49,469 nt of DNA, taken from IMG/VR virus record IMGVR_UViG_2698536620_000015. One strand, written 5' to 3'. This document shows positions 3,001 through 6,000 of the stretch, in pieces. Every line of letters begins with the position of its first letter. Position 1 is the first letter of the stretch. Position numbers: made by a program. The DNA is from a virus (lineage: Duplodnaviria; Heunggongvirae; Uroviricota; Caudoviricetes).

Positions 3001-6000
3001 AGCAGAGAACGGAGCTGTCTTTTTCAGTTTGAGAGTGGCGGTGTTATCTGCGTGACCTGGTTCATCAATAGTACCCAGGTTAAGAACACTGACGGCACGC
3101 ATATTATCAGCATCGATAAAGCAGCGGGTGCCTTCATCTGCAAGATCTTTAGAATAACGAGTAAAGTCATCGATGCTGGCAGTGGAAAGCGCACCACGGA
3201 AACGGAAACGATTTAAATTTAATTTTTCCAGATCATGAATGCGGAAATTCTCAGGCAATGCCACAGCATCGGCACCAATCTTACTGATAATTTCATTAAC
3301 ACCCTGAGCAGAAATAAGGGCATGGATTTGATTAATTGCGGTTGCGTCTAAGTTCTGAGACATAATAAGTCCTCACTATATAAAGATATTCAGTGATGAG
3401 ATAAATAATCGGTTAATTAAGAACGATATTAATGACCTGCTGCGCGGAGTTTTCCGTCAGGTTCACCGGCAAGAGTCAGTAATTGTCCCTGGTCTTCCTG
3501 CAGAATAGTCAGGCGACCACCGCGATTGACATACATCGGCGTTTCGGTGGTGTCTTCTTCGGAAATTTTCCCGCGGTTAGTCGGGCGAACATATGAGAGT
3601 TTGTGTTTGATTTTCACACGGTTCTCATCAAATGGTTCGATTTCCAGGTTGAGTGAGACCTTACCTTTGGTTTTCGTGTTCATCACACCGGAAGCGACTT
3701 CACTGAGAACTGCGCCGATTTTGGTTTCAAATACGCCGCCGTCCAGCTCCCCAATAAATGCCTGCACATCAGTACTGCGTTCGCTAGCCATTTTGCTGCT
3801 CCTAATCATATCGACCCTGCAAGGTCGGTTGGTTTCTCCACAAAACAGAGAAGAACACCTGCGGTGGCAGCCGCCCGGATGGATTTGGTTATGAGCCCGT
3901 CGTCCGGTGATGCTCTTCTCTGTTTTGTAAAAAGAGCGGTACCAGCCGGAAGCAAGTGTACAAACTGGTACCGCCAAAGCAGTGGCTGTTGTGGTGACCG
4001 GTGCTGATCTCCGGCTTGCGGTTATTTCAGACTCTCACGGGCGTTTAATTGCCCCGCCGAACAGCTCTTTTCCGCATTAGCTGCAATGTCTTTCGCGCAT
4101 CAGCCTGCGCATTCACCACAACGCTGAGAGCACTTAGCCAGTTACGGCACCACACTTTGTCGCGGTTCCATAAATGTCCTCATCGTTGCACCCTGGTCTC
4201 TTCCCAGGCGTCAAACCGAATCGCCACGCTGGTTAGGCGTCTTATCAGCATCATCATTGACTTGCACATTCCGGCTACCTGGTTTGTTTGCCCGAGCAAG
4301 GAGTGGATTGTCCCCTTTAACGTCCCCAGACCGCTAACGACGCATGTGCCATACGCCGTGTTACAACCAAATTTTGTTTAATCTTGCCTGTGCTGTGTTT
4401 CTTTTAGATACATTATGTATCCCAAAGGTACATTGTCAAGTATAAAAAAACCTGCCGAAGCAGGTTATAAATATTGATTAGGCCTTTATTATGTATCTTC
4501 TTGGTTTTCCTGAGAAAATCACTGTACCAATTATAGAGCAATTACCGTTAATCTTAATGTAAGGCTCAGGCCAGTTTGGGTTTAATGCTTTGAGATAACG
4601 CTGTGTTCCATCTTCTATCAACCGCTTGAAGGTGGTTTCGCCTGTATCGTGCATCAATGCAATAACGTCGTCACCGTGGCAGGCAGGGACTTCAGGATCA
4701 ACAAAAATCATGTCTCCCGGGCGGTACTCATCAATCATTGAATCACCAATCACCCGCAAGATATAAGTCATTTCGCCACAGGGTACAGGGCAGGGATAAG
4801 TTTCTGCTGTGCTCAAATCAACCTCAGAATAGCCAACTTCTTTCCATGCTCCGGCCTGTACCCATGATATGACAGGGACTAACGTTATTTGTTTGTTAGT
4901 GATTGAAACGTCAGGTTTTTTTGTGATGTTCGTTGTCTGGTGTTCTTGATCAAGCCATCCGACAGGCAGGTCGAAACATTTTTCGATGTGCCGTGCCATG
5001 CTGTCACCGATATTTTTAGTTGCACCATCTCCCATAAACCTGCTGGTCTGGGTTGGCTCGCGATCAATCATGGTGGCAAAGGAAGAATTCCCGCCAACAC
5101 CATCTCTCAGTTTTCTGGCGTTAGACCGCCGGATGTCATGGACTGTTTTCATAAAGAAATTAAAACCTTTGTACCGATAAGGTACAAGTATCTTGAAGGT
5201 TCATCTCAATCATGTAATATGTATACCGGAGGTACATATTGTATGAAAGCGTATTGGGACTCTTTAACCAAAGAACAGCAGGGTGAGTTGGCCGGAAAAG
5301 TTGGCTCAACACCAGGCTACTTACGGCTGGTTTTCAATGGTTATAAAAAAGCCAGTTTTGTGCTGGCTAAAAAACTTGAGCAATGCACGTCAGGTGCAAT
5401 TACGAAATCTGACTTAAGACCGGATATCTATCCGAAAGATTAACAGAACACCTTCAATTTTTAACCACAGAACGATGAGGCTAACCGTGGGTAAGCATCA
5501 CTGGAAAGTAGAAAAACAGCCTGAGTGGTACGTGAAAGCTGTCAGAAAAACTATCGCGGCGTTGCCGGGGGGTTACGCTGAAGCTGCTGAGTGGCTGGAT
5601 GTAACAGAGAACGCTTTATTCAACCGCCTTCGTGCAGATGGCGATCAGATTTTCCCGCTGGGATGGGCAATGATTTTACAGCGCGCGGCTGGCACTCACT
5701 ACATTGCGGATGCTGTCGCACAGTCTGCTGGTGGGGTGTTTGTATCGCTTCCTGAAATTGAGGAAGTAGAGAACGCCGATATAAACCAGCGCCTGCTGGA
5801 AGTCATCGAACAGATCGGGAGTTACTCAAAGCAGATTCGTTCGGCAATCGAAGATGGGGTAGTGGAGCCACACGAGCAGACAGCAATTAATGATGAGTTG
5901 TATCTGTCAATTTCGAAGCTCCAGGAGCATGCAGCACTGGTCTACAAAATCTTTTGCGCTCCAGAAAAGAGTGACGCCCGCGAGTGTGCAGCTCCGGGCG

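Follow-up and report, generated by a model that had tools for sequence, protein, structure and literature searches.

Structured RNA modules with a candidate put-like antiterminator in the untranslated early-left leader of an N-less lambdoid prophage

In the N-less lambdoid phages HK022 and HK639, the early-left (pL) transcript contains put, a structured RNA of about 74 nt with two stems, close to the promoter and upstream of terminators. RNAs of the HK022 put type suppress termination in cis with RNA polymerase as the sole protein partner, by way of its beta-prime zinc-binding domain. In HK022, putL is situated just after PL, and put acts without tethering (PMC9378689). For N-less phages of the ST64B/yfdP type it has been suggested that they "may" use put (PMC12315714). 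We analysed the corresponding locus of a lambdoid prophage, IMG/VR record IMGVR_UViG_2698536620_000015 (49,469 nt, hereafter the window): the 686-bp segment 3792-4477, located between a cI-like repressor gene and a yfdP-like gene. The segment contains on the minus strand a succession of structured RNA modules, named X, P0, TLC and Z, and a predicted terminator, tL. In homologues, X, P0, TLC and Z are all preserved, and their helices have diverged by compensatory base changes. We read the segment tentatively as the region that controls the early-left operon together with the untranslated leader of this operon, in which X would be a put-like antiterminator, TLC a processing signal and Z an element of the 5' untranslated region (UTR) of yfdP; it is the reading we favour, at somewhat less than an even chance. 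The modules are arranged in the following order:

4177 to 4363, minus strand: module X, a structured RNA of 185 nt with five helices, defined by a covariance model (CM) and two alignments; H1 ACGGCGUAUG/CAUGCGUCGU; H2 GCGGUCUGG/CCAGGUAGC, enclosing a variable hairpin; a 3-bp junction helix; H4 ACGC/GCGU; H5 CCUGG/CCAGG.
4125 to 4182, minus strand: helix P0, joining X to TLC; 5' strand UGAGGACAUUUA (4182-4171), variable apical hairpin, 3' strand UAAGUGCUCUCA (4136-4125).
3988 to 4122, minus strand: module TLC, a tRNA-like three-way junction, defined by nhmmer matches and alignment A4; 9-bp closing helix P1 GUUGUGGUG (4122-4114)/CACCACAAC (3996-3988); nearly invariant hairpin 1 GCGCA-GGCUGA-UGCGC (4110-4095); variable insert (4094-4016); hairpin 2 GCCGG-AGAUCAGCA-CCGGU, in the family CCGGY (4015-3997).
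3929 to 3975, minus strand: predicted intrinsic terminator tL, a G+C-rich stem of about 13 bp, GGCGGUACCAG...CUGGUACCGC, followed by UCUUUUU.
3840 to 3928, minus strand: module Z, a three-way junction with a 20-bp closing stem (3928-3909/3859-3840); arm A, CCGGA/UCCGG enclosing GGG-CUCAUAA-CCA (3898-3886), a mimic of the initiator-tRNA anticodon arm; arm B, GCGG-CUGCCA-CCGC.

Copies of X were collected by scanning a viral collection with an invariant 19-mer; 38 non-redundant sequences were aligned (A1) and the five helices were drawn by hand. In this alignment 95.3 % of the positions were paired and 12 pairs had undergone compensatory change, a result matched by none of 500 shuffles, and slid controls scored far lower. 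The single strand GGUAGCCGGAAUGUGCAAG is strictly conserved. The covariance model of X (R2) yielded a single hit in the window, with 143.5 bits and E = 6e-47. An independent set of one-genome-per-species contigs from 12 Enterobacterales genera presented hits in 23 of 24 contigs at 111-168 bits; these sequences were 96.5 % paired with 11 compensatory pairs in an alignment that was fitted to the model, by which pairing is favoured. A long-range pairing GGCACAU/AUGUGCC proposed by RNAalifold in place of H1 was rejected: both strands are invariant, one of them being the search anchor, and H1 has compensatory changes. X was also encountered in metagenome bins labelled Oscillospiraceae and Bacillota (loci L436 and L448, the latter at 168 bits), most likely mis-binned contigs of enterobacterial phages rather than phages of true Firmicutes hosts.

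Helix P0 was complementary at 10 to 12 of its 12 positions across the variants, with the compensatory changes GAGAG/CUCUC, AAGAG/CUCUU and GAGCGCAC/GUGCGCUC; the window copy has one A-C mismatch. The 3' strand, directly 5' of TLC, is UGCUCUCA in the window and UGCUCUUU in the majority of homologues, a string that resembles the boxA of rrn operons (UGCUCUUUAACA) and of phage lambda (CGCUCUUA). This octamer near hairpins, in an early-left leader with a terminator to pass, recalls the lambda N/nut system and brings in a first alternative: X, together with P0 and TLC, may be a nut-like recruitment site at which a phage antiterminator encoded elsewhere or host Nus/rrn-type factors modify RNA polymerase. 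Lambdoid phages generally use Nus factors, and the leader and the tRNA arrays that harbour these modules are both long and untranslated, like the RNAs that rrn-type complexes shield from Rho. However, the boxA-like string is part of a covarying helix and is GUGCGCUC in some homologues, thus selection seems to act on pairing and not on binding of NusB/S10. Between pL and the terminator tL no N-like open reading frame (ORF) was found, as the original prediction had stated, and no boxB-like hairpin of the GNRA type was recognised in the leader. Within the limited flanks that were fetched, no protein family was common to all contexts of X, i.e., lambdoid pL, the P1 ban operon and the Uetakevirus moron. 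A nut-like site is therefore considered unlikely, and a lambda-type N/nut system was rejected for the lack of a conserved ORF from pL to the terminator and the location of the boxA-like octamer inside P0.

For TLC, 42 distinct copies were aligned without the insert (A4), whose length varies from 6 to about 120 nt. The alignment had 97.4 % of its cells paired and 11 compensatory pairs, reached by none of 500 shuffles; only the compensatory counts are informative, because the extraction of the copies required good pairing. The loops GCUGA and UCAGC of the two hairpins are mutually complementary, and a kissing contact between them is weakly supported by one compensatory case (L052) beside three G-U pairs and two mismatches. 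TLC shares with the RNAs of phage tRNA clusters, e.g., the stable RNAs C and D of T4 and the tRNA-like domain of tmRNA, an acceptor-like closing helix, complementary loops, a D-like hairpin of 4-5 bp and a T-like hairpin of 5 bp. It has also the strand and spacing of tRNA genes: tRNA genes were present within 3 kb in 29 of 128 TLC loci, in all cases on the same strand, and TLC occupied a tRNA-sized slot of the array. After X, TLC is interchangeable with tRNA-Arg; TLC begins at an offset of +158, the true tRNA-Arg of Uetakevirus-type loci at +165. In these features TLC corresponds to the tRNA-like elements of phage arrays, a descriptive class. In contrast to tRNA genes, the T-loop is devoid of GUUCRANYC, the closing helix has 9 bp and the position of the anticodon arm is taken by the variable insert. 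A true tRNA was thus rejected, as a cloverleaf with a 7-nt anticodon loop is not formed, and neither ARAGORN nor the Rfam tRNA model called TLC, even at E <= 10. Since the insert sits at the anticodon-arm position, TLC cannot decode: it is a tRNA-shaped element. The copy in P1 (L006, 2891-2779, minus strand; about 69804-69916 of P1) is antisense to the upl/plp junction and downstream of trnA/trnT, thus either the small genes upl/plp or the TLC call need re-examination.

Module Z comprises the feature that had first drawn attention to the segment, a perfect 14-bp inverted repeat (CAAAACAGAGAAGA at 3841-3854, its complement at 3914-3927) with a spacing of 59 nt. Direct reading confirmed it, and a repeat search extended it to arms of 25 nt with 84 % complementarity; by our estimate, chance alone would give about 1e-3 perfect 14-bp inverted pairs in 686 nt. 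A 97-nt stretch with the repeat folds at -47.9 kcal/mol (z = -7.8, 200 shuffles), and the repeat forms the outer part of the closing stem. In an alignment of 20 diverged homologues from ST64B, Klebsiella phages and others (A3), 94.3 % of the positions were paired and nine compensatory pairs occurred, again attained by none of 500 shuffles; one pair changed on both sides from G-C to C-G in nine sequences. The repeat is thus conserved and keeps its pairing in homologous phages, as the original prediction expected of a functional stem. It had taken the repeat for part of a cis-acting RNA element, possibly put- or nut-like. A structured RNA is present indeed; the repeat is not the candidate for put or nut, being the closing stem of Z downstream of the terminator.

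Arm A of Z carries in the family consensus the 13-mer GGGCUCAUAACCC (GGG-CUCAUAA-CCC), three G-C pairs closing CUCAUAA, which is identical to the anticodon stem-loop of the E. coli initiator tRNA. It was invariant in 19 of the 20 aligned homologues, in an alignment seeded with this motif. The 16-mer CGACGGGCTCATAACC of Z was also found in the viral scan inside two real tRNA-Met(CAT) genes. Z always stood after the T-run of a terminator; on its other side came a small hairpin and then the ribosome-binding site belonging to the first gene, in most cases yfdP:

3791 to 3828, minus strand: small hairpin (3828-3811), Shine-Dalgarno sequence AGGAG (3803-3799) and ATG (3791) of the yfdP-like gene.

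The hairpin appeared in the fold and in a plus-strand scan for terminator-like structures, and the start codon agrees with the annotated SfV orf32 and mEp460_035. Copies of tRNA parts in bacterial leaders are not without precedent. In the thrS operator of E. coli, the anticodon stem-loop of a tRNA is reproduced near the ribosome-binding site, as in Z, and the metY-nusA-infB leader presents a tRNA unit and then a terminator ahead of protein genes, comparable to the tRNA-like unit and terminator of this leader. In contrast to both, the mimic in Z is that of the initiator tRNA inside a three-way junction closed by 20 bp, and the downstream phage genes are of unknown function.

Region 3975-3929 is predicted as an intrinsic terminator by its G+C-rich hairpin and U run. 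It folds at -21.2 kcal/mol (z = -4.3), and a hairpin with T-run was present at this place in 59 of 64 distinct homologous contexts, with a median of -22.5 kcal/mol and differing stem sequences. Owing to its loop of more than 8 nt, tL had escaped a consensus terminator scan. In the remaining early-left operon (1-3800), a simple scan revealed no further convincing terminator on the minus strand. Since tL is conserved, nothing is encoded between pL and tL, and the first gene lies beyond it, expression of the early-left genes would require read-through of tL. X might be seen in this position as a riboswitch-like attenuator that senses a ligand or signal and decides on the formation of the terminator at 3929; a complex conserved multi-helix fold with invariant single strands upstream of a terminator in an operon leader is what such an element would look like. 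Yet more than 200 nt, P0 and TLC, separate X from the terminator and no alternative pairing linking the two was seen, there are terminator-free copies of X immediately ahead of a tRNA gene and ahead of P1 ban, and no Rfam riboswitch matched. We regard an attenuator as highly improbable.

The terminator also gives room for a reading in which it is the regular end of transcription. The pL transcript would end at 3929 as an X-TLC RNA of about 475 nt, a stable non-coding RNA that is cut further. The tRNA mimics, TLC and the initiator anticodon arm of Z, would serve in trans as decoys or sponges, the targets being host tRNA-directed enzymes or defence nucleases. The X-TLC unit ends in a strong and conserved terminator, TLC with its almost invariant hairpin 1 occupies tRNA-sized slots in the tRNA arrays of P1-like, N4-like, Ackermannviridae and Lastavirus phages, and in a P1-like plasmid it neighbours the annotated anti-defence gene Tad2. 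The arm of Z is identical to the anticodon stem-loop of the initiator tRNA, a structure that is cleaved by enterobacterial VapC toxins. A cis role fits better, however, with the position of Z beyond the terminator and fixed beside the ribosome-binding site of the first gene; X is promoter-proximal and leader-like, and no partner protein was identified. A decoy RNA as the main product, with such enzymes as targets, appears unlikely to us, yet trans and cis roles are not mutually exclusive.

The upstream part of the segment contains the signals for the start of this transcript:

4449 to 4466, minus strand: intrinsic terminator of the cI-like repressor gene, a hairpin AACCUGCUUCGGCAGGUU followed by UUUUUAU to about 4442, found by a terminator scan.
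4412 to 4439, minus strand: promoter pL, -35 TTGACA (4439-4434), 16-nt spacer, -10 CATAAT (4417-4412), found by a promoter scan with 11 of 12 matches.
4407 to 4432, strand-neutral: operator OL, the 17-bp site TGTATCCCAAAGGTACA (4416-4432) with the overlapping palindrome GATACAT-T-ATGTATC (4407-4421).

The minus strand thus proceeds from the repressor terminator to pL, overlapped by OL, and to an untranslated leader of about 610 nt. The start of the pL transcript is predicted near 4405. The 17-bp site fills the spacer of pL, and the palindrome covers the -10 box and the predicted +1. The 17-bp site belongs to a family of three direct repeats, with further copies at 5170-5186 and 5220-5236 beside the divergent, rightward promoter; the GGTACA motif that the original prediction had likened to the sequence beside the right operator is its right half (4427-4432). 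Binding of the repressor to OL is suggested by these sites. The depositors of the phage Ayreon annotated a promoter at the position equivalent to pL, and the records of Ayreon and SfV contain a terminator at the place equivalent to 4449-4466. The coincidence of promoter, shared 17-bp sites, palindrome and repressor terminator makes the presence of OL/pL in the segment well supported. The original prediction had thus rightly recognised the repeat, the palindrome and OL/pL, and had missed X (4363-4177), the tRNA-like module (4122-3988) and the terminator (3975-3929).

Its view that the segment has no credible gene was borne out as well. Each ORF of the segment either begins with TTG or GTG or is very short, and none has a canonical start together with a reasonable length. 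The reading frame through the best-conserved stretch is not constant across 38 non-redundant homologues: each of the three frames occurs, and the open length ranges from 14 to 62 codons. Variable inserts differ by lengths not divisible by three, and no conserved small protein emerged. The N-terminal extension of the long minus-strand ORF, which depends on a TTG and had been judged non-coding, overlaps an RNA helix with compensatory changes. Depositors of related phages called differing and mutually inconsistent small ORFs. Small proteins from minus-strand ORFs of 36, 39 and 49 codons or a plus-strand ORF of 110 codons annotated in mEp460 were rejected on account of frameshifts and the lack of a conserved start; Ayreon was too close in sequence to decide this question and the wider alignment was used.

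The distance from the predicted pL start to X is about 40 nt. Of 36 distinct contexts of X, 10 had a sigma-70-like promoter in the 60 nt preceding X, compared to 2.2 % of control windows. X therefore has the place of put: it belongs to the early transcript, close behind the promoter and ahead of a predicted terminator. A put-like role is the best functional hypothesis for X, on grounds of position and context and not of homology. A covariance model of put (R1), prepared from 24 put sequences of HK022, the annotated HK639 element and the viral scan, recovered HK022 putL with 97.9 bits, HK639 putL with 87.1 bits and HK022 putR with 39.9 bits. On ST64B, SfV, mEp460, Ayreon, P1 and phiV10 it revealed nothing. 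The put consensus (GUCGAACGGCGCGAC..UAAACCAUGCGUCGG with stem II GGCGGG/CGGCAAU) was not detected by R1 in the segment, and X is not a member of the put family. The original prediction had put forward an antitermination RNA as in HK022. Of this, a put-like mechanism stands as the best hypothesis, now for X (4363-4177), and membership in the put family does not; the Rfam covariance search for put- or nut-like elements that it had suggested gave no match in the segment. A processing-type or tRNA(-like) element comes after X as well as after put. RNase III reportedly cuts just downstream of HK022 putL with antitermination unaffected, as Sloan and co-workers are said to have found in 2007, which sets a precedent for processing at such a site. 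In 16 of 62 distinct put contexts, a long helix (GGAAUGUUUUGG...CCAAAGCAUUUC) about 20 nt downstream enclosed a tRNA or tRNA-like insert. These inserts include exact copies of TLC (L292, L230), with the closing helix covaried to AUUGGAUGA/CCAUCCAAU, and an insert called tRNA-Ile by ARAGORN (L274). X and put never co-occurred: X was present in 154 loci and put in 68, none with both.

Several observations weigh against this reading. R1 with the filters off found nothing in 3792-4477 (the best match elsewhere in the window had E = 1.9), and R2 found nothing in HK022 and HK639. A string common to the window X and putL, ACGGCG...CAUGCGUCG..AGCG, does not represent homology: most X read CAUGUGCCG with covarying partners, and it is discounted because it covaries in the X family and neither model crosses over. 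The mutual exclusion of X and put rests on short fetched loci of about 1-15 kb each. X, with about 185 nt and five helices, is unlike put in size and fold, and it is single-copy: R2 detected no second X in the 49.5-kb window including the pR operon, whereas HK022 has putL and putR. A putR counterpart is perhaps not universal, as the examined part of the HK639 record annotates only a putL-like feature. X is also found outside of lambdoid early operons. In P1, X lies a single base beyond trnI and ahead of ban, no obvious terminator being present between X and ban, and in Uetakevirus X precedes a tRNA, thus read-through of a terminator is not the only role of X. ST64B and SfV have kept the terminator and Z and lack X, so another module must act there. 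Finally, the Z copy of the window has CCA instead of CCC in arm A and one broken pair.

In the leader of SfV (L002, 2918-3397), the 98-codon orf33 and an additional annotated terminator replace X and TLC, while OL/pL, terminator and Z are kept; the orf33 product might stand in for X. ST64B (L347, 2070-1830, minus strand) contains terminator, Z and a variant TLC, and its leader has UUAACCCACGGCGUCGG and CUGUAGCCAGUGCAAGCG, which recall UAAACCAUGCGUCGG of put and GGUAGCCGGAAUGUGCAAGC of X. Neither covariance model hits this leader, which may be a third type or an intermediate.

The favoured reading, X as a put-like antiterminator, would operate as follows. X would fold on leaving RNA polymerase and, like HK022 put, render the elongation complex termination-resistant. 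This would let the polymerase run past the terminator at 3975-3929, and past Rho on the long untranslated RNA, into yfdP, yfdQ and the remaining genes of the operon. TLC, which has the shape of a tRNA without anticodon arm, may be cut by RNase P and/or by RNase III at the long flanking helices. Such cleavage would free the message from X, in the way reported for RNase III close behind HK022 putL. Z, after the terminator and about 35 nt before the Shine-Dalgarno sequence, may influence how translation of the first cistron begins or how stable this cistron is, or act on a factor that binds tRNA-fMet. A more far-reaching version, which we regard as doubtful, sees X as the founder of a second, structurally unrelated class of protein-independent antiterminator RNAs that modify RNA polymerase and work together with the tRNA mimics TLC and Z. 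This class would be widespread in phages of Enterobacterales (lambdoid pL, the P1 ban operon, tRNA morons), TLC would be an RNase P/III release signal, and Z would couple read-through to translation initiation or disarm a nuclease directed at tRNA-fMet.

Profile searches in 428 fetched loci revealed a fixed order X, TLC, Z on one strand, which held in more than 100 loci. The combination X-TLC-Z was observed 22 times, X-Z 37 times, TLC-Z about 45 times and X-TLC 13 times. The exception to the order are P1-like elements, with TLC ahead of X across the tciABC-trnI genes. The segment is 100 % identical to a sequence of E. coli strain 6409. Parts of the 686 bp were present in 2663 of 5426 complete E. 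coli genomes, at least 80 % of the segment in 793, and 178 phage records matched. In mEp460 a different repressor is combined with a 99 % identical leader; the leader is thus a module independent of immunity. The segment is itself a mosaic: the blocks 1-186, 196-344 and 325-581 (segment numbering) are distributed separately. Matches to pieces of it were also obtained in unrelated phages, in non-coding DNA adjoining tRNA genes: between trnI and ban in P1, abutting tRNA-Arg in a Uetakevirus of the phiV10 type, in a P1-like plasmid, and as short collinear blocks in Ackermannviridae, Lastavirus and N4-like phages. Such a distribution, together with two modules resembling tRNA parts and module boundaries that coincide with tRNA ends in other phages, could be explained by decayed remnants of tRNA arrays and recombination joints between phage modules, with a leader that functions as a spacer only. 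The preservation of pairing in all helices by compensatory changes in diverged lineages argues strongly against it, as do the nearly invariant loops and junction strands across phage families and the fixed module order, and we give decay a very small probability, the lowest of all explanations. On the P1-like plasmid pCUVET20-PYO4.3 (L004, 584-1159), a gene of the Thoeris anti-defence Tad2 family adjoins a cluster of tRNA-Ile, X, TLC and tRNA-Ser, which places RNA modules in an accessory, anti-defence neighbourhood.

The segment is surrounded by the following genes:

4478 to 5152, minus strand: cI-like repressor gene of the LexA/UmuD type, the upstream neighbour of the segment.
From the ATG at 3791, minus strand: yfdP-like gene, downstream of the segment.
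2539 to 3363, minus strand: yfdQ-like gene, beyond the yfdP-like gene.

Beyond the divergent promoter, a cro-like gene and a regulator of the YmfL family are encoded on the plus strand. Ayreon, SfV, mEp460 and ST64B have the identical gene order with the gap unannotated or annotated inconsistently. A comparison of the yfdP- and yfdQ-like proteins to NCBIfam assigned no family. Rfam 15 at the gathering threshold found in the whole window only IS009, C4 and isrK, all outside of the segment, and a permissive scan of 3300-5600 (E <= 10) yielded only chance-level matches around the repressor terminator. ARAGORN detected no tRNA or tmRNA gene in the whole window. Literature searches, not including the King 2011 survey of put-like sites, provided no published description of the leader elements; a preprint on the Pas sRNA was rejected as a description since it deals with other loci. 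With neither an Rfam family nor a paper found, the leader elements appear to be undescribed.

Among the Rfam matches, isrK (64 bits) and the C4 antisense RNA (82 bits) are side by side at 6395-6583 on the plus strand, inside a 278-codon ORF (6035-6871) that is annotated as 'immunity region' in SfV and Ayreon. The pair suggests a control module of the rightward operon, P1/P7 immI-like or of the Gifsy anti-Q/antirepressor type. IS009 matched in full length (218 bits) at 49231-49429 on the plus strand, near the end of the window. Identical weak matches to the put model at 38937-39024 and 44613-44700 represent an exact repeat about 5.7 kb apart, and further weak matches revealed a three-copy repeat in the late region (30198-30234, 33208-33244 and 33632-33668).

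Lambda-like phages without N and without a recognisable put are a large group that includes SfV, ST64B, mEp460, cdtI, the Stx2c phages and LLS, and a genome paper from 2025 could only guess that such phages use put. The gap of 690 bp can now be divided into defined parts, among them two tRNA mimics, a conserved terminator and a promoter-proximal RNA in the position of put. Should X prove to be an antiterminator, just one other class of phage RNA would share with it the ability to reprogram RNA polymerase without the help of a protein. Even otherwise, three widespread families of structured RNA, one of them with the exact anticodon arm of the initiator tRNA, have been absent from Rfam and from annotation, where spurious small ORFs were called instead.

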